From the UHGV virus genome UHGV-0142988: a stretch of DNA of 10,260 bases; one strand, 5' to 3'. This DNA comes from a virus. Shown piece after piece: positions 1 through 10,260 of this stretch. The notes under the pieces were generated by a model, which worked only from the letters and a program-made list of their open reading frames with translations, had not been told where the DNA came from and ran no database searches. The translations under genes and the position numbers were made by a program. The first letter of the stretch is position 1. Every line of letters begins with the position of its first letter.

Positions 1-38
1 CGAGTCTCGTGGGCTTCGGAGATGTGTATAAGAGACAG
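1..38. other. Sequencing adapter remnant (Nextera/Tn5 mosaic end, one-base indel) at contig start; artefact
   Basis: Positions 20-38 read AGATGTGTATAAGAGACAG, the 19-bp Tn5 mosaic end, preceded by GTCTCGTGGGCT(T)CGG, the Nextera read-2 adapter with one extra T. Confidence 0.85.
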
Positions 39-42
39 CTCA

Positions 43-238
43 TGTCCGCCCCACACGGACACTTCCCCAAATTTGTCCGTCCACCACGGACACTCACAGA
101 CACAGATGTCCTCTGTACGCACACAACGGACAAAATAATAGTGCAATATACACAACTATTACTGGAAATCAATCCAATAATTGTGCACATTGCACTATAA
201 AAATCAGTTATTTTAGAACATTATGCTCTTGTGTCCGT
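43..238. repeat. Terminal-region short repeats TGTCCG(T)/ACGGACA: two hairpin-capable inverted pairs (~43-61, ~74-92) plus solo copies (~126-132, ~232-238)
   Basis: Six copies of the 6-7-mer within ~200 bp directly after the adapter; the first two pairs are inverted repeats with 5-7 nt spacers. Confidence 0.6.
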
Positions 239-269
239 GTGTGAGAGACACATACAGGGGTGATGTTTT

Positions 270-283
270 CGAACATGTGTTCT
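270..283. promoter_or_regulatory. Candidate LexA/DinR SOS box (Cheo-box-like, cGAAC-atgt-GTTCt), with an overlapping GTTC-tat-GAAC
   Basis: GAAC-N4-GTTC with 5' flanking C, ~17 bp upstream of the predicted -35. This is the only such site I found in the window. Confidence 0.5.
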
Positions 284-299
284 ATGAACAATATGGACT

Positions 300-328
300 T
301 TGAATAAATCTAAATAATTACATATAAT
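300..328 (+). promoter_or_regulatory. Candidate sigma-A-type promoter for the rightward early operon
   Basis: TTGAAT (-35, ~300-305), 17-bp spacer, TATAAT (-10, ~323-328); ~30 bp upstream of a GAGGTG RBS and the ATG at 359. Confidence 0.5.
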
Positions 329-358
329 AATGTTATCAAATGAAAGAGAGGTGAACAG

Positions 359-508
359 ATGACAGATTACGAAGAAAGCTACAAAAATTATCTTGCATGG
401 CTCACTCCACGTGAGCTATTGCATGAATACAAGATCATGCGTTTACCGTGGCGTTATCGGGAACGAAAATGGATCAAAGAAGAAATAGAAAGTAGGTGTG
501 TGTACTAA
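359..508 (+). CDS. Small hypothetical protein (49 aa; MTDYEESYKNYLAWL...), below the ORF-track length cutoff
   Basis: ATG with GAGGTG RBS ~7 nt upstream; first ORF after the promoter; read by eye. Confidence 0.35.
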   Translation: MTDYEESYKNYLAWLTPRELLHEYKIMRLPWRYRERKWIKEEIESRCVY

Positions 509-602
509 TGTTGGATGCTATATTGTGGTTTGGTTTTGGTGCTATATTAATTTTTCCGTATGGAGTTTGGTGTGGGGCAAAATGGTCAGGAGGATATAAG
601 AA

Positions 603-806
603 ATGAAAAATTATTGTGATATATGTTTTACATGTAATGATGCTGAAGTTTGTCATTCATGTAGCCAGCCAGAGATTTGTTCCGAATTTAAAAAGTGTTT
701 TGATCATAAGCCTTATATAATGTGGGAGAAAATGACAAGTTTTGACGATATCATGAGATGTGTTGAGAAATGGAGGGTGTACAATGAGCAGACCGTTAAA
801 CAGTAA
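603..806 (+). CDS. Small Cys-rich protein (67 aa), possible zinc-ribbon-like
   Basis: AGGAGG RBS ~7 nt upstream of the ATG; CxxCxxC...CxxC spacing in the N-terminal 32 residues (seven Cys). Confidence 0.55.
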   Translation: MKNYCDICFTCNDAEVCHSCSQPEICSEFKKCFDHKPYIMWEKMTSFDDIMRCVEKWRVYNEQTVKQ

Positions 807-1041
807 GAAGTCATGGTATAAGGTATATATCAAAGAATTAAATACACCGAATATCATTAAAAGTCAGTGTAAATATAAATGCGATTATCTATTAGTAAAG
901 GCATACACAGGATCAGTCGCAATGGCAATCGTGCAGGACTACGTTGTCGAGTTTGAAGAAAATTTCCGTCCTGTATACTACAACAAATTGGAGGGAGGTG
1001 TTCCTATTGACAACAAAAAAGTCTTATTTGAAGAAGAGTAA
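784..1041 (+). CDS. Hypothetical protein (86 aa from internal ATG; track ORF begins at 760)
   Basis: GGAGGG RBS ~6 nt upstream of the ATG at 784; overlaps the 3' end of the previous gene; protein-like composition. Confidence 0.45.
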   Translation: MSRPLNSKKSWYKVYIKELNTPNIIKSQCKYKCDYLLVKAYTGSVAMAIVQDYVVEFEENFRPVYYNKLEGGVPIDNKKVLFEEE

Positions 1042-1648
1042 ACCACAAGGTCTTATAAGAACAAAAGACGATTATACGCCGCTTGCTCTCGAGTTAACAT
1101 GGGATATGAAAGACGTTAGAAAAGAGTATTCACGGTTAAGATCAATCTGGCGTAAACGTTATGAAAGATTACTGAAATCTGACTATAAAGATATCAACCT
1201 TGTAACGGATCGACCGATCCAACGTTACAAGCAGTTGAAAGATATAACAAGTGATAGAGAACTCTATCACTTGTTATCTGAACTATCAACTATTATAGGA
1301 TCAGATCGAACTACAGTAACAGGATTGAAAAAACGGGAAAAAGAGCAGATGGAACACATCAACGATGTGTATGGAACAGAGTTAAAAACGCACGAAGATT
1401 TATTAAATTTTGGACGTTTCATGGAACAGTTACGGGATTTTGCATCTGATAGAATATACGATTCTGATTTTGCAGTTGATTTATATTCTGATGGTGAAAA
1501 GCTGAGTACGGGCAAAATGTTAGAGCTATACAAGGAATTTTTGAAAACTGGATCACGTAACATCGAAAAATTGAAATCTGGCATAGCAAAGAAAGAAAAA
1601 GCGAAACGTCAGAAGAGGAAAGCAGGCAAACGTAAACGTAGGAGGTAA
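1007..1648 (+). CDS. Candidate terminal protein (~213 aa if started at TTG 1007; track ORF 944..1648)
   Basis: Directly upstream of, and translationally coupled to, the protein-primed DNA polymerase (its stop lies in the polymerase RBS). Strongly basic C-terminal tail KKEKAKRQKRKAGKRKRRR. GGAGGGAGGTG lies ~6 nt upstream of TTG 1007. Function is from synteny, not homology. Confidence 0.45.
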   Translation: MTTKKSYLKKSKPQGLIRTKDDYTPLALELTWDMKDVRKEYSRLRSIWRKRYERLLKSDYKDINLVTDRPIQRYKQLKDITSDRELYHLLSELSTIIGSDRTTVTGLKKREKEQMEHINDVYGTELKTHEDLLNFGRFMEQLRDFASDRIYDSDFAVDLYSDGEKLSTGKMLELYKEFLKTGSRNIEKLKSGIAKKEKAKRQKRKAGKRKRRR

Positions 1649-1651
1649 CAC

Positions 1652-3733
1652 ATGGAAAATCTGTATACTATTGACACATATAATTATAATAGAATACGGA
1701 ATTTACCATGTTTACATGATACTAGGTCTAACAAAGGAAGTAAAAAAGCAAAAGGTTATAAAAATTGTCTGTGTGCTTTCGATATCGAAACAACTAGATT
1801 GGAAGATATCGAGCAGTCAATAATGTATATCTGGCAGTTTTCAATTCTTTTTCTTGATGATTTACATGTTGATACGATAATTGGAAGAACGTGGACAGAA
1901 TTTGAGTTATTTCTTGATAATCTTATGAATGACGATAACTATGCATATTATATGATTTTTGTTCATAATCTTTCATATGAATTTCAGTTTTTGCGTGGTA
2001 TATATACATTTTCACCGGATGAAGTTTTTGCCATAAAATCACGTAGAATATTGAAATGTGAAATGTTAGAGCGTTTCGAGTTTCGTTGCTCATATTTACA
2101 AACTAATATGTCACTAAATACGTTTACCTCAAAAATGAAAGTAAAACATCAGAAATTATCTGGTGAAAAATTCGATTATAGTAAAAAGCGTTTTCCATGG
2201 ACAGAACTAACCGATTATGAAATAAAGTATAGTACATACGACACGATTGGACTAGTTGAAGCAATGTATAAACGTATGATACTGTCAAATGACAATCTAT
2301 ATACACTACCATTAACGTCAACCGGTTATGTACGTCGTGAAACGAAAAAAGCCATGTATGGTTGGTCACGAAAACACAAGGATATATTTCCCACTATAGA
2401 TGTTTTCGATCTGCTAGAGGAGGCGTTTCGGGGCGGAGATACTCACGCTAACCGTTATTACTCAGGAACCGTGATACGTGCATATGGTAAAAATATTCTA
2501 GGAATCGGTTCATATGATAGGTCATCCTCTTATCCTGACGTTGTGTTGAATTGTGTTTTCCCGATGACACGTTTTGTATATATCGGATCAATAGATGAAT
2601 CTGATATAGATAAGAAACTGGATAGAGGAAAAGCACTCTTATTCCGATGTAAAATAACAGGTATTGAGCAGATCGACAAGTATTACGGATCGCCCTATAT
2701 TTCATATTCAAAATGTAGAAATGTTTCATGTGAAACACTTGACAATGGGCGTATTTTAAGTGCTGACTATATTGAAATAACGCTCACTGATATTGATTAT
2801 GAGATAATGAAACGTGAGTACAAATGGAAACATTTTGAAATAACAGAGTGTTATGAGAGTAAATACGGAGCATTGCCAGAACCGTTGAAAGACATTTTCC
2901 GTAAATATTATACTGACAAAACAGAGTTAAAAGGAATCGTGGAACAGGAACTTTTCTACAACTTGCAAAAGGCTTTGCTTAACGCTGGCTATGGAATGAT
3001 GGTTCAATCACCCGTGAAACAGTCGTTAATATTTACAGAATCGGCAGAAAACATATATACAGTTGATGAAAATGTTTCACGTGAAACATTACTCACTAAA
3101 TATAACAGAACAGCTTTCTTGCCTTATCAATGGGGTGTTTGGGTAACAGCATGGGCACGCCAGCGATTGAAAGAGGGTATAAACATAGTTGGAGATCGTT
3201 ACGTTTACAGCGATACGGATTCAGTAAAATATATAAAAGTAAGAGGTGATAATATTGACGAGTTATTTGATAGATACAATTCTGAGAGAAAAGAGCAAAG
3301 TATCTCCAATTCCGCATACGCAACAGACCGTTATGGCGTTAAACATTATATGGGGGTGTATGAATTCGAGGATACGTATACTGAATTCTCCACCATTGGT
3401 ACAAAAAAATATGTCTATAGAACTAAAGATGGAAAACTACACGCAACAATCGCAGGAGTTAATAAAAAGCTTGCACCGGATGAGTTGGAAGAACATGGAG
3501 GAATTGAAGCTTTCAAAACTGGATTTACCTTTTTACGATCAGGAGGAACTGAAAGCGTGTACAATGACGTTCCTTATGGGGATTACACCGTGGAAAATCA
3601 TGTTTTAAAAATTACACAAAATGTAGTTATCAGACCGTCAACTTACACAATAGGAATAACAGATGAGTACCGTAGGATTTTGGCAGACGCAAGAACATTA
3701 AAAGAATTTAAATATACTTTTGACAAAAATTAA
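1652..3733 (+). CDS. Protein-primed family-B DNA polymerase (693 aa)
   Basis: AGGAGG RBS. Exo I FDIETT, Exo II HNLSYEF, Exo III YSTYDTIGLVEAM, motif A YDRSSSYP (Dx2SLYP-like), motif B KALLNAGYG (Kx3NSxYG-like), motif C YSDTDS, KxY in TIGTKKYVY. Confidence 0.95.
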   Translation: MENLYTIDTYNYNRIRNLPCLHDTRSNKGSKKAKGYKNCLCAFDIETTRLEDIEQSIMYIWQFSILFLDDLHVDTIIGRTWTEFELFLDNLMNDDNYAYYMIFVHNLSYEFQFLRGIYTFSPDEVFAIKSRRILKCEMLERFEFRCSYLQTNMSLNTFTSKMKVKHQKLSGEKFDYSKKRFPWTELTDYEIKYSTYDTIGLVEAMYKRMILSNDNLYTLPLTSTGYVRRETKKAMYGWSRKHKDIFPTIDVFDLLEEAFRGGDTHANRYYSGTVIRAYGKNILGIGSYDRSSSYPDVVLNCVFPMTRFVYIGSIDESDIDKKLDRGKALLFRCKITGIEQIDKYYGSPYISYSKCRNVSCETLDNGRILSADYIEITLTDIDYEIMKREYKWKHFEITECYESKYGALPEPLKDIFRKYYTDKTELKGIVEQELFYNLQKALLNAGYGMMVQSPVKQSLIFTESAENIYTVDENVSRETLLTKYNRTAFLPYQWGVWVTAWARQRLKEGINIVGDRYVYSDTDSVKYIKVRGDNIDELFDRYNSERKEQSISNSAYATDRYGVKHYMGVYEFEDTYTEFSTIGTKKYVYRTKDGKLHATIAGVNKKLAPDELEEHGGIEAFKTGFTFLRSGGTESVYNDVPYGDYTVENHVLKITQNVVIRPSTYTIGITDEYRRILADARTLKEFKYTFDKN

Positions 3734-3781
3734 CATATGTGTTATAATTCATGTAAAGAGATATTACAAGGAGGTGATAAT

Positions 3782-4036
3782 ATGAAAATTACACGTTCAT
3801 TAACAGTTAACAAGATCAACGTTATCTGCTACGATCCTGAGAATAAGTGTGAGTTTGTACAGGAAGTTGGTTTGATCGGAAATCTTACTGATGAGCAGAT
3901 CAGCAAAGAGATTAAAAAAAGAAATTTTGGAATTGTTATTGATTGGGAAAGAACATCAGAAGAAACAAAATTATACGGAATGGATGCCGAAGTGTTTTTA
4001 AAAAATGCAATCATTATTAAAGAAAAGGAGAACTAA
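3782..4036 (+). CDS. Hypothetical small protein (84 aa from internal ATG)
   Basis: AGGAGGTG RBS ~6 nt upstream of the ATG at 3782; sits between polymerase and ATPase genes. Confidence 0.55.
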   Translation: MKITRSLTVNKINVICYDPENKCEFVQEVGLIGNLTDEQISKEIKKRNFGIVIDWERTSEETKLYGMDAEVFLKNAIIIKEKEN

Positions 4037-4039
4037 ATC

Positions 4040-4474
4040 ATGGCAAAGAATTATACTATCATTAAATCATCGGGAAACCTTGATACCTATTCAGAATATG
4101 AACTCATCGAGTCACCTGCAATCGTTTCACTTAAAAACGTAGAAAACAAAGGACTTATCTGTGTTGGAGCGTGGGTGAAATATCTTACCACCGACAATAT
4201 CGGAAATGAAATAACCTGCATTTCAGTGCAGGACGCAAACACAGGAGAGGTATTCTCAGGTCAGTCAGCACCTTTCAGAGAAACATTCGAGGCTGTTACC
4301 GATCGTATTTCTGACATGGACGAAGCTCCAGAAATGTTTTTCATCGAGGTTCTTCATAGACAGTCAAAGTCAGGTCGTGATTATCTTATGTGCGCACTTG
4401 TTTCCCCGGATCGTGCTTTTGCCCGCATGGGATATACTGAAAAGAACATTCCTATGCCAGAGCCCCAGAAATAA
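4040..4474 (+). CDS. Hypothetical protein (144 aa); an SSB or DNA-binding role is only a positional guess
   Basis: AAGGAGA RBS before the ATG at 4040; tightly packed with neighbours; no motif recognised. Confidence 0.6.
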   Translation: MAKNYTIIKSSGNLDTYSEYELIESPAIVSLKNVENKGLICVGAWVKYLTTDNIGNEITCISVQDANTGEVFSGQSAPFRETFEAVTDRISDMDEAPEMFFIEVLHRQSKSGRDYLMCALVSPDRAFARMGYTEKNIPMPEPQK

Positions 4475-4475
4475 T

Positions 4476-5525
4476 ATGTTATCGTTATACGAAAATAGCG
4501 GGTATCTATCGATACCCGCTATTTTAGGATATGGACAAAAGTTTAATTACATCTGGGGTGGCCGTGGTACGGGGAAAACTTACGGTGCTCTTAAATACTG
4601 TATTGAACATAAAAAAATTTTTGCTTATATGCGATCATTGCAAACACAAATTGATATGATTAAAATTCCAGAACTTTCACCTTTTAAAAAATTAAATCGT
4701 GATTTAGGATGGTCAATATATCCGAAAAGTGTCGGGAAAAATATTGCTGTGTATTATAATGCAGAAATTGACGAAAATGGTAAAATAAAATATACTGGAG
4801 ATATACTCGGTTATTCCATAGCGTTAAATACATTTGCCAATTTACGAGGTTTTGATGCATCAGACGTTGAGATAGGAATATATGATGAATTTATCCCCGA
4901 AAAACGTGAACGCAAAGTTGAAAATGCTGGATATGCTTTTAAAAACGCATATGAAACAATGAATCGAAACCGTGAACTTGATGGAATTAATCCGATACAG
5001 TTTTTATTGTTTTCTAATTCTGAAAGTTTATCATGTGATATGTTTATAGAGAATAATTTAATGGAAAAAGTATCGAGCATGGATATTAATAAACAATCTA
5101 TGTCTATTATACGTGATAGAGGTATTGGACTTTTTAACTTGTATGATTCGCCGATTTCTGAAAAGAAAAAAGACACAGCTCTGTATAAAATGTCTGGATC
5201 AGATTCAGCATTTAACAGGATGGCACTAGGAAATGAATTTTATTCCGCTGATTATTCAGGAATTAGAAGCATGAACATTAAAGAACTGATACCACTATGT
5301 AAAATGGACGCTATTACAATATATCAGCACAAGAGAAAAGACTTAATATATGTAACACGGCACAGCTCTGGTACACCGCCAGAGTATTCCAATACAGATA
5401 AGGATGTAAAAGCTTTCAGACGAGATTTTATTTATTTATGGGATATGTATTTATCAAACAAGGTGCTGTTTGAGGATATCACAAGCAAGTCCCTATTTGA
5501 GATTTATTTTAAAAATAAATATTGA
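4476..5525 (+). CDS. P-loop ATPase, phi29 gp16-like DNA encapsidation ATPase candidate (349 aa from the ATG right after the upstream stop)
   Basis: Walker A GGRGTGKT near the N-terminus and Walker B EIGIYDEF about 110 residues later. Size and motif spacing fit phage packaging ATPases of the ASCE/FtsK-HerA class. Confidence 0.75.
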   Translation: MLSLYENSGYLSIPAILGYGQKFNYIWGGRGTGKTYGALKYCIEHKKIFAYMRSLQTQIDMIKIPELSPFKKLNRDLGWSIYPKSVGKNIAVYYNAEIDENGKIKYTGDILGYSIALNTFANLRGFDASDVEIGIYDEFIPEKRERKVENAGYAFKNAYETMNRNRELDGINPIQFLLFSNSESLSCDMFIENNLMEKVSSMDINKQSMSIIRDRGIGLFNLYDSPISEKKKDTALYKMSGSDSAFNRMALGNEFYSADYSGIRSMNIKELIPLCKMDAITIYQHKRKDLIYVTRHSSGTPPEYSNTDKDVKAFRRDFIYLWDMYLSNKVLFEDITSKSLFEIYFKNKY

Positions 5526-5671
5526 TTTTGTGTTTTATATCTGATATTATCTTTAATAGAAAGACAAGTGTTCGTGGCACACGTACAACACGTCGGGAGC
5601 GTGGGATCATAAGAATCCAATGTGCATGAGCATGTACAGCTCAAGAATTTGTAACACTTAATCTTTCATCA

Positions 5672-5708
5672 CATATGCAGAGTGTCAAAGCCTGCATATG
5701 TTTTGTTT
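5672..5708 (+). terminator. Candidate intrinsic terminator after the ATPase operon
   Basis: 9-bp stem CATATGCAG / CTGCATATG with an 11-nt loop, followed by TTTTGTTT. Confidence 0.55.
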
Positions 5709-5754
5709 CACGTGAAACATTTATCACCTTTCTTTAATGTTTCACGTGAAACAT
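5704..5754. promoter_or_regulatory. Tandem palindromic operator-like sites: TGTTTCACGTGAAACA (~5704-5719) and ATGTTTCACGTGAAACAT (~5737-5754)
   Basis: Two perfect 16-18-bp palindromes 33 bp apart, directly upstream of a TATAAT-like element (~5774-5779) and the RBS of the gene at 5791. Confidence 0.6.
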
Positions 5755-5790
5755 GTTATATGTTGTGCTAATATATAATGGAGGTGAAAT

Positions 5791-5988
5791 ATGGACGTTA
5801 ACTCATTATCAACTCTTATCAGTAACATTGGTGTGCCTTGCGCCTGCCTTATTGCGACTTTCTATCTTTGGCAGAAAGAAACGGATTCTCACAAAGAAGA
5901 AATGAAACGCATGACAGACGCACTCAACAACAACACTCAGGCACTTACAAAACTCACAGAACATATCACAGGAAGTGAAAAAAAATGA
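5791..5988 (+). CDS. Small single-pass membrane protein, holin-like (65 aa)
   Basis: GGAGGTG RBS; one hydrophobic segment (LSTLISNIGVPCACLIATFYLW) then a charged C-terminal tail; ATGA overlap with the next gene. Confidence 0.55.
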   Translation: MDVNSLSTLISNIGVPCACLIATFYLWQKETDSHKEEMKRMTDALNNNTQALTKLTEHITGSEKK

Positions 5989-6230
5989 CGATTAACTACA
6001 ACAAAAATATCAGAGGTGTGTATATCGTCGCAACGAACACAGGGCCTCTGATGGTCAGGGCAGAGCCTAGTACAGACGGAACAGTTATCGCAGAAATGCC
6101 GAAAAACACAAAATGCATCTGTCTAGGATGCTATTCTGGAAACTGGTATGCAGTCATTTACGAACATGACAGTATCATTTCCACCGGCTTTTCTCACAAA
6201 AATTATCTCAGGAGGGATTATAAGATATGA
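5985..6230 (+). CDS. Stand-alone SH3b-like cell-wall-binding domain protein (81 aa)
   Basis: Pattern GVYIVATNTGPLMVRAEPSTDGTVIAEMPKNTKCICLG...GNWYAVIYEH...GFSHKNYLRR resembles bacterial SH3 domains; no catalytic domain attached. Confidence 0.6.
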   Translation: MTINYNKNIRGVYIVATNTGPLMVRAEPSTDGTVIAEMPKNTKCICLGCYSGNWYAVIYEHDSIISTGFSHKNYLRRDYKI

Positions 6231-6421
6231 CGTTAGACAACTTAATTACACTCATTTCAGCAGGATTCACGAAAGAAGAGATCCTCACAATGTCAGGTAC
6301 AGTCACCCAGCGTGCCCCACAGCCACAGCCACAGCCACAGCCACAGCCACAGCCACAGCCACAGCCACAGCCACAAAATACAAAGCAGAAATTGCAAAAT
6401 CAAGATCTAAATACAAATTAA
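6227..6421 (+). CDS. Small protein with a (PQ)10 linker-like repeat (64 aa)
   Basis: ATGA overlap with the upstream gene; contains the in-frame hexamer repeat. Confidence 0.5.
   Translation: MTLDNLITLISAGFTKEEILTMSGTVTQRAPQPQPQPQPQPQPQPQPQPQNTKQKLQNQDLNTN
6317..6375. repeat. Tandem hexanucleotide repeat (CCACAG) x ~9.8
   Basis: Perfect tandem copies read directly in the sequence; encodes PQPQ... in the 6227 ORF frame. Confidence 0.95.
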
Positions 6422-6608
6422 GTGATATTTTAATTCGTGTAGAAAAAAATAGCCTTTATTTTTATTTGCGTAAATGATTCCTTTACTTTTAGCACTAAAA
6501 GCAAGAAAACTATAATTTTATAATTTTCTTTGTTTAAGGCCAGTAATGTTTTCGGCGTTTCAATTGTCCTCGACGAAGGCCGCTTCCGCGACCTTATCTA
6601 GCCCGTGC

Positions 6609-6965
6609 TCATTGAGAACGATCAACTACCATGTATGTTGGTTGACACAGGCTGCCGCGTTCCTGTAACCAGTAGTAATCAAGATCCGCAACACGCATAT
6701 CCAACCCCGAATCCACACGATTGATCTGTAACCGCAGCCCTACAGTATCTTTGTACGATAAACCAGATTTAACATTGTACTTGTACTTAACCCCGCTTTC
6801 TTCTTCAAAAGATTTGAGATAAGGGGGGATTTGCTTCTGAATTTCTTTCAAACAAATAACTTCCCCATCAATTACGAACGGCTTTTCAGTTTTACCGTCA
6901 GGAATAGTAGCCGCAATTGTGGTTAATGGAACTATCGACAACAGTACTGATAATGCTCTTTTCAT
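6609..6965 (-). CDS. Secreted small protein with N-terminal signal peptide (118 aa from the MKRALS start)
   Basis: AAGGGGA RBS before the internal ATG; MKRALSVLLSIVPLTTIAA is signal-peptide-like with no lipobox Cys; ~20 nt downstream of the partner gene. Confidence 0.6.
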   Translation of the reverse strand: MKRALSVLLSIVPLTTIAATIPDGKTEKPFVIDGEVICLKEIQKQIPPYLKSFEEESGVKYKYNVKSGLSYKDTVGLRLQINRVDSGLDMRVADLDYYWLQERGSLCQPTYMVVDRSQ

Positions 6966-6987
6966 CTGTTCTTCCCCTTGAATATAA

Positions 6988-7599
6988 TCATTGTTTAGAA
7001 CAAATTTGTGTAATGGTTGCATTATGGTTAAATTCAACATCAATTACTTTTATAGTATTATCATTAAGTACAGATACAAAATAATTACTTGACGAATTTC
7101 CGTACTTCCTTGAACCATCTGCTGCAATCTTGTTGAATTTAGCAGTATACACACTATCTTTATCGCCGGGAATTGGCATTCGACTGATTAATTCATTATC
7201 GGAAATAGTATAATAAATTAAAATTCCTTTATCTGAATAGTAACCTGAATCGCTTTTTGTTCCCTGTCGAGTTTGTATTATTGCATCGAACTTATCGCAT
7301 TTATAAACATTGGTTTTGGCCTTTTCAGTACTGGTAGACGTTGAAGCCTTTACATCAGTACTTTTATCTTGTGAAACAACCCCGGAACCGATACCTACCG
7401 AAACGACAAAGACAATAAAACTCATGCCTAACGACGTAATCAAAGTACGGAACTTTCCCCGACCTTTATTTCTGGAATAGTTTGAAACTTTCCTGAAAGT
7501 AAGTACTGCAAGGATCACACAAATGATGAAAACGACAAGCCCGGCCATAAAATCCCTCAAACGTTGTGTATCAAAGGCAATCATAGTATCACTTCGCAA
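6988..7599 (-). CDS. Two-TM membrane protein with Ser/Thr-rich ~130-aa extracytoplasmic domain (203 aa, or 198 aa from ATG 7584)
   Basis: Hydrophobic segments AGLVVFIICVILAVLTF and LITSLGMSFIVFVVSVGIGSGVV separated by a basic loop; TTG start in the track with an in-frame ATG 5 codons later. Confidence 0.6.
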   Translation of the reverse strand: MRSDTMIAFDTQRLRDFMAGLVVFIICVILAVLTFRKVSNYSRNKGRGKFRTLITSLGMSFIVFVVSVGIGSGVVSQDKSTDVKASTSTSTEKAKTNVYKCDKFDAIIQTRQGTKSDSGYYSDKGILIYYTISDNELISRMPIPGDKDSVYTAKFNKIAADGSRKYGNSSSNYFVSVLNDNTIKVIDVEFNHNATITQICSKQ

Positions 7600-7601
7600 T
7601 A

Positions 7602-7624
7602 CATTGATCGATTAAAGCGATCAA
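7602..7624. promoter_or_regulatory. Palindrome ATTGATCG-attaaag-CGATCAAT in a divergent control region (7600-7700) that also carries three ATCAAT copies
   Basis: 8-bp inverted repeat just upstream of the leftward gene start and upstream of the rightward leader. Confidence 0.35.
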
Positions 7625-7699
7625 TTTTTGATTTTCGATCGGTTAAATCTATCAATATCTATTAATTGAAGACAAATCAATAGGTAAAAACGATCAGAC

Positions 7700-8100
7700 G
7701 TTGGTCAGTACTTCGGAAACACCAGAAGTATGGTTTGGGTCTGCCGTTTAAACGCCCTCAGAAAACCGCTAAGGTCTCTTTATCGCATATGGCTTGGGAT
7801 TTCAGCCTTTGGCTAAAATCGCTTTCAGGGGGGCTTCTTGTGCGTTTTGTCGGGAACACCATCATGGAGGGGGATAAATCGGATCGAAGTCGCTTCGCTC
7901 TGGTCAGTACTGGAAGGGTTAGCTTATCTGGCGAGGGAAGATGAATTGCCAGGCTTCATGAAGATGGTTGGTTTTGTGGACAAGAAGAACTGCCGTTTTG
8001 AGTATTCCCCCTCACACCCAACAAACCTACCCATTAGCAAGGGGGAGTACTTTCTCGTAGTATACAGAACGAATAAATTCTTTGTATACTTCCGTTTTAT
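7700..8100 (+). ncRNA. Candidate structured 5' leader / cis-regulatory RNA (class unassigned)
   Basis: ~400 nt without a convincing ORF, visibly more GC than flanks. 12-bp stem (~8001-8012 / 8040-8051, one G-U pair) with a C/A-rich 27-nt loop, then an AT-rich hairpin (~8059-8090) plus U-tract just before the downstream start. The 11-mer TGGTCAGTACT occurs twice (~7703, ~7901). Confidence 0.35.
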
Positions 8101-8111
8101 CCTAAAGCGAT

Positions 8112-8801
8112 TTGATTATGGACGAGAATAATAAAGAAGTTATTGAAATAAGACCAGAAGATAAGGACTTTTTCGCAGAATTTATTGATTGTGAAGGTCC
8201 AATTATCCAAGATTCAATTGATCATAAAAAAATCACCCTCGCACTTGATAAAGCCCACGACATAAGAAAGTTTGAAATAGATCTCTATTGGAAGCGTGCT
8301 ACATACTTCTTCGCATTCTTCACTGTAATAACAGCTGCATTTGGTTATTTGTTCACCCATGACAACTATACTTTCTTAGCCCCTGCACTTGCGATCATTG
8401 GTTCTGTTTTTGCTTTATGTTTTTGTTATGTGAATATCGGTAGTAAGTATTGGCAAGAAAACTGGGAGTTTATAATTGATAAAATTGAATATTATGTCAC
8501 AGGAAACCTTTATAAACTTTTCTTCTTCGAAAACCATAGAACCAAACGCCCATCAGTCACTAAGATTAATATATTTCTAAGCAAGCTAATTATAGCTACA
8601 TGGTACGCTTGCTTTATACTTTCCATGCACCAGATATGGAATCAAAGCATGGTATTAAATGTCTCTTATATTATCCTTACCATATATAGCACTGGAACGA
8701 CATTATATTACTGCGATAAAACTGTTGCAGACATATCGAACAATGATAAAGAATCACCACGATTCTTTAGATTCAGAAATCCTAATTACATAAAATCATA
8801 A
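8112..8801 (+). CDS. Multi-pass (about 4 TM) membrane protein with ~60-aa soluble N-terminal domain (229 aa; probable ATG at 8118)
   Basis: Four hydrophobic segments (ATYFFAFFTVITAAFGYLF; FLAPALAIIGSVFALCFCYVNI; INIFLSKLIIATWYACFILSMH; MVLNVSYIILTIYSTGTTLYY); weak RBS. Confidence 0.65.
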   Translation: MIMDENNKEVIEIRPEDKDFFAEFIDCEGPIIQDSIDHKKITLALDKAHDIRKFEIDLYWKRATYFFAFFTVITAAFGYLFTHDNYTFLAPALAIIGSVFALCFCYVNIGSKYWQENWEFIIDKIEYYVTGNLYKLFFFENHRTKRPSVTKINIFLSKLIIATWYACFILSMHQIWNQSMVLNVSYIILTIYSTGTTLYYCDKTVADISNNDKESPRFFRFRNPNYIKS

Positions 8802-8805
8802 ACAT

Positions 8806-8824
8806 GGGGGCATTTGATGCCCCT
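8806..8824 (+). terminator. Candidate terminator hairpin GGGGCAT-ttg-ATGCCCC just after the stop codon
   Basis: Perfect 7-bp GC-rich stem with 3-nt loop; the downstream U-tract is weak on plus and better on the minus strand. Confidence 0.45.
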
Positions 8825-9065
8825 TGTAAATTGATAATCCGACCTAAAAACACTTTGAGTACTTCATTTGTCAGTACTGTTATCTGTTTGAGCGAAAGCG
8901 AGTAACGGCTTTGGCGTGCTTTCGAGTACTGCGAGAAAAACGCAAAGTTACGATCTGATATTTGGTTTTTATAGAGACTAACAAGCAAAGCGAAGTTAGG
9001 CTCTTTAGATACTGAATATCAGTAAGGCTAATACATTCAAAATATCAGGTGAAAGGCAATATTAT

Positions 9066-9194
9066 ATTAAGTTACGGTTATTCACCCCACTGCATAAAAC
9101 AAGAATAACCTACTGATTTTACGGACTTTTATTTGAATAATAATTCACTAATAATCATGATAACCGTATTTCTTAGTTTTAAGTTACGGTTATA
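9066..9194. repeat. 15-bp direct repeat TTAAGTTACGGTTAT (~9067-9081 and ~9179-9193) with an inverted partial copy ATAACCGTA (~9161-9169)
   Basis: Read directly; lies in a convergent intergenic region abutting the 3' end of the gene at 9202. Confidence 0.7.
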
Positions 9195-9201
9195 GGTACG
9201 A

Positions 9202-9669
9202 TTAAACAATGGTTCGTAGATATGCAATCAGATCTTTCGCTGAGGCATTACTGTTCAATAATTCCTGTACTGCGTTCTTCTGTTCGTCGGTTAATGGCTT
9301 ACCAGGCAATGCTTTCTTTAGTCCACATAGCGTACCACCTTCTTCTACAAACTTATCCAATGCTTTAGCAACTGCGGTACAGGCTAATTTGTACTTCTCG
9401 ATAGATGATTCACTTGCTGCAAATTTCTTCATCTGATCTGAACGGGTTAAGGTAAGATAATACTTAACCTGTACTTTTGAAAGCTCTGTAGCGTGTTTGA
9501 CGATGTAGAAGACATCTTTAACAGGTAACTTGTACTTTCCCAATGATTTACACTCTTGAATCGTCTGGTTAATTATTAGAGTTGCTTCTGATGTTAGGCC
9601 ACTGTAAGTAACACGTTTTAGTGCTTCTTCTAACTTTTTATTGTTATAAATCCTTTCTTTTTTTGCCAT
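9202..9669 (-). CDS. Hypothetical protein (155 aa)
   Basis: Clean ORF with ATG start; protein-like composition; no motif recognised. Confidence 0.6.
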   Translation of the reverse strand: MAKKERIYNNKKLEEALKRVTYSGLTSEATLIINQTIQECKSLGKYKLPVKDVFYIVKHATELSKVQVKYYLTLTRSDQMKKFAASESSIEKYKLACTAVAKALDKFVEEGGTLCGLKKALPGKPLTDEQKNAVQELLNSNASAKDLIAYLRTIV

Positions 9670-9759
9670 GATAAATACCCCTATGGAAGATGTTAATTAA
9701 TATTGGCCTGATGTATTCCTAATACTCAGGCTTTTTATTTAAGAAGAAAATGGGTGGGG

Positions 9760-10026
9760 TTATACTCCACGTACCTTCTTGAACCATTCACGATACTCTG
9801 GCACTTTATTTTTGCGTAAATTGCTAATGAAATCTTGATCGCAATTAACTTTAAGTAAATTACAAATCCTAGCACTTGTCATATCACTTAGTAGGATATT
9901 CTCGTACTGAGAGAATGTTAGTTGAATGAAATTAACCTTTTCTTTCTTTCGAACTGATTTGTTCAATGACTTCCTATTAGTCCTGATTTTATTTTTTGTT
10001 TTTATTTTACCGTTTTTCTTTGACAT
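9760..10026 (-). CDS. Small basic protein with possible C-terminal helix-turn-helix (88 aa)
   Basis: GGAGTG RBS before the ATG; very basic N-terminus (KKNGKIKTKNKIRTNRK) followed by an HTH-like segment. Confidence 0.55.
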   Translation of the reverse strand: MSKKNGKIKTKNKIRTNRKSLNKSVRKKEKVNFIQLTFSQYENILLSDMTSARICNLLKVNCDQDFISNLRKNKVPEYREWFKKVRGV

Positions 10027-10260
10027 TTTGTCACTCCTCTAAATTAAAATTCATCTCATGGTTAACCTCCTACGGCTGTTGTTTATGTTCGATTGGCTAT
10101 ATGTTAACGGGCAAAATTGCCCCAATCAAGGAATAGTTGCAACTTTTTCTTGACAAGATCATTACTATTCAAGTCAAAAAATCATATATCATTTAGGCAC
10201 TATCTTTGGGTAATGACTCCAACTTATTGATAGTGTTTTATGTTCAGATAATGCCCGATG

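Follow-up and report, generated by a model that had tools for sequence, protein, structure and literature searches.

The window analysed here is UHGV virus genome UHGV-0142988, a stretch of 10,260 nucleotides (nt) that constitutes an entire contig with a metaSPAdes-style name (ena:ERZ1755413:NODE_2955_length_10260_cov_14.57). Its left half is a segment of a phi29-like gut phage, and its right half is part of an Escherichia coli island integrated at the 3' end of ffs. Sequence comparisons indicate that the discontinuity between the halves is an assembly chimera of the small phage and the island fragment, at a shared six-base repeat. The right half is rich in the palindrome AGTACT and in the octamer CAGTACTG, which contains it. 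This excess is a real property of the E. coli half and the mark of a wider pool made up of defence islands and uncultured enterobacterial prophages. We put at about 75% the probability that both parts hold together, namely that the window is a phage-E. coli assembly chimera and that the AGTACT excess is true to a mobile lineage in which it is maintained by selection.

The junction between phage and E. coli DNA

The following features define the two halves (L001 is E. coli record NZ_CP062889).

1..6316, all genes on the + strand: segment of a phi29-like gut phage of ~14 kilobases (kb), from Pfam PF05894 and PHROG terminase and holin matches
6317..6375, + strand: chimeric junction, a perfect (CAGCCA)n microsatellite encoding (PQ)n, with exact units over 54 nt (6320-6373)
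6376..6421, + strand: last 15 codons and stop of an E. coli hypothetical protein of 554 amino acids (aa); L001 coding sequence 6441-8105, same stop
6376..10208, + strand: central cargo of the E. coli island integrated at the ffs 3' end, equal to L001 8060-11892
10209..10260, + strand: terminal inverted repeat of the insertion sequence IS1 at the contig end, 96-100% identical to IS1 in phage and plasmid records

The phage half includes a phi29-type packaging ATPase (Podovirus_Gp16, PF05894) at 4476-5525 and has 80 relatives in IMG/VR, on contigs of ~12-14 kb. Positions 39-6375 are 89-93% identical to nine independent IMG/VR contigs of this phage, and the match ends at 6375. About 30 complete E. 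coli chromosomes match positions 6317-10208 with 99.9% identity, and left of 6317 there is no E. coli match. Because E. coli identity begins at 6317 and phage identity stops at 6375, the two parents share 6317-6375 only. The (CAGCCA)n repeat is also present in E. coli L001 (70 nt, 7990-8059) and in the phage contigs L117, L119 and L121. Past their own tract, the nine phage contigs run on into CAGTTCTATCCACAG... (CAGTTCTATCCACAGAAC...), unlike the E. coli sequence of the window, and four further assemblies of the phage terminate within the repeat. On the E. coli side, the (PQ)n tail is the 3' end of the 554-aa gene, whose stop codon lies at window position 6421. Since the repeat is coding in both parents, as (PQ)n, the join gives rise to a plausible-looking fused open reading frame (ORF) of 64 aa at 6227-6421, which is recorded on the window contig alone.

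Composition agrees with two sources. The tetranucleotide log-odds correlation between the left and right halves is r = 0.17. The left half correlates with its phage relatives at r = 0.78, and the right half with the cargo of other ffs islands at r = 0.75 and with the ybhA prophage family described below at r = 0.67. The original prediction had placed a compositional break at ~6.5 kb (from ~6540) and had named a distinct origin or a chimeric join as one possible cause. The join was found, as a phage/E. coli join in (CAGCCA)n about 200 bases to the left. The break stands as a discontinuity of source organism and k-mers located at 6317-6375, but not as one of GC (guanine plus cytosine) content, which is 0.358 on the left and 0.361 on the right. 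GC-richer islands, proposed as a mark of the right side, do not distinguish it, with local peaks of 0.44-0.45 in both halves.

A metagenome assembler would have joined the phage contig (1-6375) to the E. coli fragment (6317-10208, with its IS1 end) through the shared perfect repeat, which would be roughly as long as the assembler k-mer, or longer, in both parents. When short-read metagenome assemblies join two genomes at a shared repeat, the chimeric contigs look like this: the flanks match different organisms at high identity and overlap in a perfect low-complexity repeat about as long as the k-mer, where other assemblies break, and the far contig end stops in an IS element. The sole oddity here is that the repeat is coding in both parents, and the join is an ordinary chimera of this kind. 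That a phage-E. coli recombinant molecule was really present in the sample is most improbable: a perfect shared repeat of 54-70 nt could in principle allow homologous recombination, but join and fused ORF are seen on a single contig, all 13 other phage assemblies halt in the repeat or go on as phage DNA, about 30 E. coli genomes continue leftward from the repeat into their own 554-aa gene, and it would be biologically implausible for a protein-primed phi29-type phage of ~14 kb to carry 4 kb of Enterobacteriaceae DNA that ends in IS1.

The repeat itself varies on both sides. In the phage relatives (L117/L119/L121, ~6190-6440), the (PQ)n gene goes on to encode a long low-complexity protein rich in Q and P, and the repeat varies in length (30-54 nt) and purity among phage contigs. 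The E. coli 554-aa protein ends independently in the same hexanucleotide repeat, the length of which differs among strains (match starts at 6317, 6324, 6330, 6336 and 6360).

AGTACT in the window and in related mobile elements

Exact counting found ten copies of AGTACT in the window, all within 6943-8930, and four copies of CAGTACTG. Dinucleotide shuffles expect 2.05 copies of AGTACT (maximum 6); for CAGTACTG the mean over 200 such shuffles was 0.09, and four copies were never reached. Within 6940-8935, the Markov-1 expectation for AGTACT is 0.35 (Poisson P = 6e-12). The over-representation reported earlier therefore holds against shuffled controls (4 vs 0.09 and 10 vs 2.05), and exact counting agrees with the four octamer positions given (~6942, ~7326, ~7905, ~8872). 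The near-copies of the octamer also exist, although five had been listed under a count of four and the one at 7357 had been overlooked. It is likewise true that the left part lacks AGTACT, but this is uninformative, as 1.24 copies are expected there and P(0) = 0.29. The sites and the features around them are as follows.

6943, 7327, 7357, 7502, 7707, 7906, 8046, 8858, 8873 and 8925, no strand: the ten AGTACT sites (exact counting)
6609..7040, - strand: gene call for a 143-aa hypothetical protein with a signal-peptide-like N-terminus, containing CAGTACTG at 6942
6988..7584, - strand: gene call for a 198-aa hypothetical membrane protein, containing AGTACT at 7327, 7357 and 7502
7600..7918, + strand: conserved noncoding block, a GATC-rich promoter-like stretch and then ~95 nearly invariant bases (7816-7912)
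8000..8051, + strand: imperfect hairpin upstream of the 8xMP gene, GAGTATTCCCCCT ... AGGGGGAGTACT, read from the sequence
8118..8801, + strand: RipA-family / 8xMP octameric membrane protein, 227 aa (Pfam PF24838, E = 3e-28; RefSeq name)
8858..9041, + strand: noncoding stretch downstream of 8xMP with three AGTACT (8858, 8873, 8925), from local blastn and island comparison

Four of the ten sites are coding and six noncoding, and four of the ten lie inside CAGTACTG. The same excess was found when relatives of the right half were searched for the motif, as the original prediction had proposed. In L001 the complete ffs island measures 9.86 kb (3703-13562), is bounded by the 22-nt direct repeat GAAATGGGTGGGGGCCCTGCCA and belongs to a family present in 62 of 5,426 complete E. 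coli genomes. It holds 23 AGTACT, compared to one in 10 kb of flanking core genes. Five ffs islands with largely different cargo have 2.2-3.0 AGTACT/kb and their flanks 0.06-0.14/kb; the density in 66 kb of non-overlapping E. coli core is 0.076/kb. Islands at ppdD and thiM share one module with the ffs islands, composed of a small serine recombinase, two hypothetical proteins, a conserved noncoding block and a helicase-like protein. They are AGTACT-rich in this shared module only, and their adjacent, equally AT-rich Hachiman genes contain no copy.

Prophages in ybhA show the excess as well. A 15-kb remnant in strain G3/10 has 33 AGTACT in 14 kb, including its terminase and tail-fibre genes; its 8xMP homologue is preceded by a related sequence (88% nt identity over window 7904-8101). 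The intact 32-kb prophage L116 of strain ESBLEC_MG48, which has a large serine integrase, holds 48-49 copies; its OLD-nuclease accessory locus has only one, though its structural genes are rich throughout. The structural genes of the prophage remnant L014 are also rich throughout. Compared with isolated phages, L014 has no DNA-level relative, and the best TerL protein identity is 36%. Among 38 IMG/VR contigs with TerL 40-100% identical (36 of them at >= 64%), most have 2-3.7 AGTACT/kb and five have 0.4-1.1/kb. A Mangrovibacter genome contains a related, also AGTACT-rich ybhA prophage remnant, and this was the single exception among 8xMP relatives in 63 genomes of other phyla, which otherwise show no AGTACT excess.

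The composition of the pool was quantified in 663 kb of DNA from the ybhA family (L078-L116). AGTACT occurs 1523 times there vs 218 expected (7.0x), and GTAC is enriched 2.4x over Markov-1. AGTACT alone among the 64 six-base palindromes is strongly enriched, and 24 others stand at <= 0.25 of expectation, including the sites of SacI, SalI, PstI, PvuII, BamHI, KpnI, XhoI, NcoI and StuI. GCGC is at 0.09 of expectation. GGTACC and CGTACG are nearly absent from the family despite the GTAC enrichment. The flanks of 123 unique AGTACT sites carry information at position -1 only (C 0.43, A 0.33, G 0.10, T 0.14). In L116, 44 of 49 sites are inside genes, in all three frames, and there is no strand bias (coding strand, AGTAC[^T] 61 vs [^A]GTACT 67). 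Site spacing shows no helical phasing; it shows a period-3 coding signal and spikes at 22, 23, 36 and 46 nt, which are the same homologous site pairs across related phages. A terminator-like hairpin, ACGGGAAGTACTTTT...AGAAGTACTTCCCGTTT, is conserved in L087-L103 (e.g. L087 6512-6556) with AGTACT in both stem arms, which shows that larger inverted repeats often contain the palindrome.

On these comparisons, the E. coli fragment is ffs island cargo within a pool of AT-rich mobile DNA of Enterobacteriaceae. The pool comprises the ffs islands, the modules in ppdD and thiM islands and the uncultured ybhA prophages with a large serine recombinase. Throughout it a nested palindrome is enriched in coding and noncoding DNA, built on GTAC with A/T on either side and, more weakly, C/G beyond these, and almost every other palindrome of 6 base pairs (bp) has been purged.

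Accessory genes, noncoding blocks and attachment sites

Two further gene calls complete the right half, and copies of the conserved noncoding block were located by alignment.

9202..9669, - strand: gene call for a 155-aa hypothetical protein
9760..10026, - strand: gene call for an 88-aa basic hypothetical protein
L008 5360-5690 (- strand), L009 11207-11525, L011 11092-11406 and L012/L013 14001-14330: copies of block 7600-7918

Searches of the right-half ORFs with Pfam, NCBIfam and PADLOC found only 8xMP, and Pfam matches of the 198-aa protein were sub-threshold only. The C-terminal part of the 143-aa protein is common to other islands at 78-84%, the 155-aa protein has distant homologues in two phage loci, and the 88-aa basic protein is possibly DNA-binding. 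Against phage and plasmid DNA collections, the right half matched IS1 or nothing. The 8xMP gene is flanked by intergenic regions of 530 nt upstream and 400 nt downstream, and its homologues are located in the accessory locus of ybhA prophages. Relative to the small terminase gene, this locus is on the side of the early genes; it is divergently transcribed from that gene and differs per member, with putative defence genes (L116 22132-25499; L014 10119-14229; L015 3987-7411). Its contents include an OLD-like nuclease, DUF3800 with 8xMP/RipA, or Hcp/DUF1493/STM2901. The 8xMP module of the window is one such accessory cassette, common to ybhA phages and the ffs island. The ybhA family has a very small early region, consisting of the integrase and about six hypothetical proteins; no recognisable repressor or replication genes were found in it, and the family has no cultured relative.

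Block 7600-7918 is common to islands with different cargo and integrases and occurs in 84 E. coli genomes, in none of which it is annotated. It has four GATC within 90 nt, and the CAGTACTG copy at 7905, which is kept in four other islands, closes its near-invariant stretch. It could be a small RNA (sRNA) gene or a cis-acting site. Positions 7600-8110 have no Rfam match at E <= 1. A plausible fold exists for the conserved part (7685-7925), with an unsupportive RNAalifold covariation term of +1.08 over five sequences; covariation is absent because the aligned sequences are too similar. At the same threshold the whole window gave only chance microRNA-like matches, none of them in 6540-9200, and it has no tRNA genes. 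The hairpin at 8000-8051 holds AGTACT 8046 in its right arm, and in relatives AGTACT is in both arms; in L014 and L091 an AGTACT pair 46 nt apart flanks the counterpart of the hairpin. Downstream of 8xMP, 8867-9041 is 76-90% common to island L010, nine ybhA prophage loci and the Mangrovibacter remnant L015.

The ffs island of L001 has three attachment (att) sites, namely attL, attR and a complete inverted attP (12079-12333) just upstream of the integrase gene (12375-13436). The inverted attP copy creates perfect inverted repeats of 138 nt and 139 nt with attL and attR. Variants with 93-96% identity in the attP-integrase-attR segment keep this three-att architecture, and so does L011, with arms 92-100% conserved and an integrase region only ~70% identical. 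In strain MB19 (L008), the entire cargo from attL to the internal site is inverted, so the ffs island flips its cargo, or its integrase gene, in nature. The att arms, which lie outside the window, contain 2 + 3 AGTACT and are 92-100% conserved. Since AGTACT forms these conserved 2 + 3 sites, the island's integrase or its excision machinery may recognise it at these positions. Three TATCTTTGTACTTT direct repeats, ~46 nt apart, separate the 88-aa gene from the internal attP (window 10190-10260; L001 11880-12000), and IS1 is inserted just before or in the first of them. The TATCTTTGTACTTT region is 89% conserved in island L010, which lacks the 88-aa gene, suggesting that the repeats may belong to the recombination module.

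On the phage side, a 260-nt noncoding region with a promoter-like stretch lies 3' of the packaging ATPase gene (5530-5790). A repeated inverted motif, GTTTCACGTGAAAC, is placed around this stretch at 5708-5721 and 5740-5753, and Rfam scores the region, spuriously, as a miRNA hairpin. The phi29-like phage may use it as a regulatory or origin-like element.

Selection, drift and candidate readers of the palindrome

We favour weak genome-wide selection on double-stranded DNA as the source of the AGTACT excess, with drift as the main rival. When synonymous codons were shuffled within the genes of L116, AGTACT fell to 18.2 +/- 3.7 from 44 observed (z about 7), so that the real genes have it twice as often, and GTAC fell to 153 +/- 8 from 221. 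In a codon alignment of 25 TerL genes, AGTACT was retained in 55% of pairs with identical amino acids, compared to 34% for other hexamers and for other NGTACN (an earlier nucleotide alignment comprised 29 genes with a mean identity of 71%). In the ffs att arm, two AGTACT 23 nt apart are invariant, and the 17-nt spacer between them varies among islands. The motif would then be maintained by weak selection on many sites, for recognition by a symmetric, probably dimeric protein that might be encoded by the phage lineage or by the host.

Several observations weigh against selection for such a reader. Independent A/T flanks on a GTAC core predict 1674 AGTACT, in agreement with the observed 1714, and pentamers fully predict the hexamer (ratio of 1.02 to an order-4 Markov model). 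By these two predictions there is no palindrome-specific cooperativity, as context-dependent compositional drift would also give. Codon usage is skewed (Val GTA 52%, Ser AGT 32%, Leu CTA 31%, with ACT also favoured), and the naive enrichment is therefore inflated. The TerL pairs are phylogenetically dependent. No gene is common to all AGTACT-rich elements, which share accessory genes only (8xMP, helicase-like, 155-aa). Finally, no recognisable regulator was found among the proteins of the window, the island and the phage early region, and Pfam, NCBIfam, PADLOC and PHROG searches of the same three sets yielded no methyltransferase or endonuclease (host genes elsewhere were outside the search).

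The strongest alternative is a neutral genome signature, in which mutation and repair spectrum and codon usage create the excess, the motif hitch-hikes with long-resident modules and there is no reader. The Markov fit, the independent flanks, the codon skew and the lack of a co-occurring gene all agree with it, and, as expected under amelioration, the motif is lacking from recently acquired accessory genes (the Hachiman and OLD-nuclease loci). Neutrality does not readily account for the excess over synonymous shuffles or for retention at synonymous sites above that of other NGTACN. Words one mismatch away are not depleted, the excess is as strong in noncoding DNA and in att arms with varying spacers, and it arises in a genome that otherwise purges palindromes. 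We consider a neutral origin a minority possibility, though one to be taken seriously. Given the independent-flank fit, the excess has the shape of an additive, symmetric position-weight matrix rather than of an all-or-none hexamer; CAGTACTG is slightly above independence (263 vs 211).

Under selection, cAGTACTg, a nested palindrome centred on GTAC, might be a genome-wide recognition code, a 'self' mark read by a dimeric DNA-binding or DNA-modifying protein. It would be positively selected in the ybhA prophages and the ffs, ppdD and thiM islands, and the ffs integrase system would have co-opted it as its 2 + 3 arm sites. We offer this specific form tentatively.

Among known systems, Chi, DNA uptake sequences (DUS), the FtsK KOPS and cyanobacterial HIP1 (GCGATCGC) are short motifs over-represented genome-wide under selection. 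AGTACT resembles them as a short word enriched many-fold in coding and noncoding DNA and selected at synonymous sites. However, Chi, DUS and KOPS are asymmetric and orientation-biased, whereas AGTACT is palindromic and strand-neutral. HIP1 is a palindrome too, but AGTACT is confined to mobile elements (0.076/kb in the core), and no cognate methyltransferase was found. The stoperators of mycobacteriophage L5 and the C1 operators of phage P1 are repressor sites scattered through a temperate phage genome; they are 13-17 bp long, asymmetric and mostly intergenic, with 17-30 per genome. With many copies of one site over a prophage, they are conceptually the closest functional precedent for a reader acting on an entire element. 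AGTACT differs from them as a palindromic word of 6-8 bp, located mostly in genes at 50-100 copies per 32 kb, and no repressor was identified among the genes of the AGTACT elements, whose early-region proteins are hypothetical. By analogy, AGTACT appears nearest to Chi, uptake sequences, KOPS and HIP1 as a phenomenon, and to the L5 and P1 prophage operators as a possible function. A search of the open-access full-text literature for AGTACT, CAGTACTG, GTAC over-representation and 'octameric membrane protein' returned nothing relevant; this coverage is no proof of novelty.

Two further likenesses were also considered. The att arms of lambda-like phages carry two arm-type integrase sites in the P arm and three in the P' arm, which are asymmetric 10-mers. 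The ffs island arms, with their 2 + 3 AGTACT, appear similar, since the sites are kept though the integrases differ (<= 30%) and the spacers vary, but the motif is equally enriched in phages with serine integrases, which have no arm sites. The SlmA-binding sequence of E. coli, GTGAGTACTCAC, has an identical AGTACT core and is a palindrome for a dimeric helix-turn-helix protein of the same host; SlmA requires G1, T2 and a purine at position 3 (PMC3020112). Sites in the pool do not follow G-T-purine on both sides (GTRAGYRCTYAC): the base at -1 is C in 43%, A in 33% and G in 10%, and one match to GTNAGTACTNAC was found among ~150 sites from seven loci.

We consider it unlikely that AGTACT is the target of restriction-modification of the ScaI/Eco255I type or of orphan methylation, with an epigenetic role like that of GATC with Dam and SeqA. 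ScaI and Eco255I recognise AGT^ACT, and the sequence is identical; a bare 6-bp palindrome with near-zero flank information over the 123 unique sites has the information content of a type II site. Moreover, L096, L106 and L079 have fewer AGTACT than their half-sites predict, as if purged by a cognate endonuclease. Restriction sites are, however, normally depleted in phages, and this lineage depletes about 24 other palindromes, whereas AGTACT is enriched, the opposite of a restriction target. The half-sites AGTACA, AGTACC and AGTACG are also enriched, and neither the window nor the island nor the early region of the phages yielded a cognate gene. Conversion of the Vsr/Dcm-like kind, which is the cause of the CCWGG excess in E. 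coli, was examined as well. Nine classes of neighbour words stand at 0.8-2.9x expectation, with AGTATT/AATACT at 1.1-1.5x. As no precursor word is depleted, a Vsr-type conversion sink is ruled out.

A local reading, in which the sites at 6940-8930 bind a regulator of the 8xMP/RipA module and its neighbours, is improbable as an account of the excess. Six of the ten sites do lie in the two intergenic regions flanking the 8xMP gene, the CAGTACTG copy at 7905 is conserved in four other islands, and AGTACT flanks the hairpin upstream of 8xMP. Yet unrelated genes for cargo, capsid, tail and terminase have equal site densities, all three reading frames contain sites and no regulator gene travels with the motif. 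The excess across the lineage cannot itself be explained locally. The six intergenic sites, the end of the invariant block and the hairpin arm nevertheless suggest that local regulatory use is possible on top of it.

That AGTACT marks sites of module exchange, for example for the small serine recombinases of the islands, is very improbable and largely refuted. The CAGTACTG copy at 7905-7912 is exactly where two blocks of homology with different ancestry overlap, a small serine recombinase is present in all ffs, ppdD and thiM islands examined, and endpoints at >= 80% identity are slightly enriched within 6 nt (7.3% vs 4.3%), a signal that is probably bias, because conserved motifs bias alignment ends. 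At sharp boundaries there is no enrichment: at >= 90% identity, 3.1% of 193 endpoints were within 6 nt vs 4.1% at random, and at >= 95% identity 0% were near AGTACT vs 4.2% at random. Phages carry the motif without a small serine recombinase. Of the original suggestion that AGTACT is a dispersed recognition site, what remains is that the word is enriched and apparently selected across the lineage; the SlmA, breakpoint, Vsr-type and nearby restriction-modification ideas failed.

For the contig, the consequence is that its 8xMP/RipA membrane protein and the other genes of the E. coli island should not be attributed to a phage. The 64-aa ORF at 6227-6421, like host prediction and auxiliary-gene calls for the contig, is an artefact produced by joining two genomes at a coding microsatellite. 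The compositional break is thus an artefact to be flagged, whereas the enrichment of the motif is real and statistically robust and can be traced to an uncultured pool of prophages and islands. The motif reveals a coherent, uncharacterised pool of mobile DNA in Enterobacteriaceae, with extreme restriction-type palindrome avoidance and one favoured palindrome. AGTACT density already tells long-resident modules from recent arrivals in defence islands, as the Hachiman and OLD-nuclease loci illustrate. If a reader exists, AGTACT would provide a new example of a mobile element marked by its sequence.

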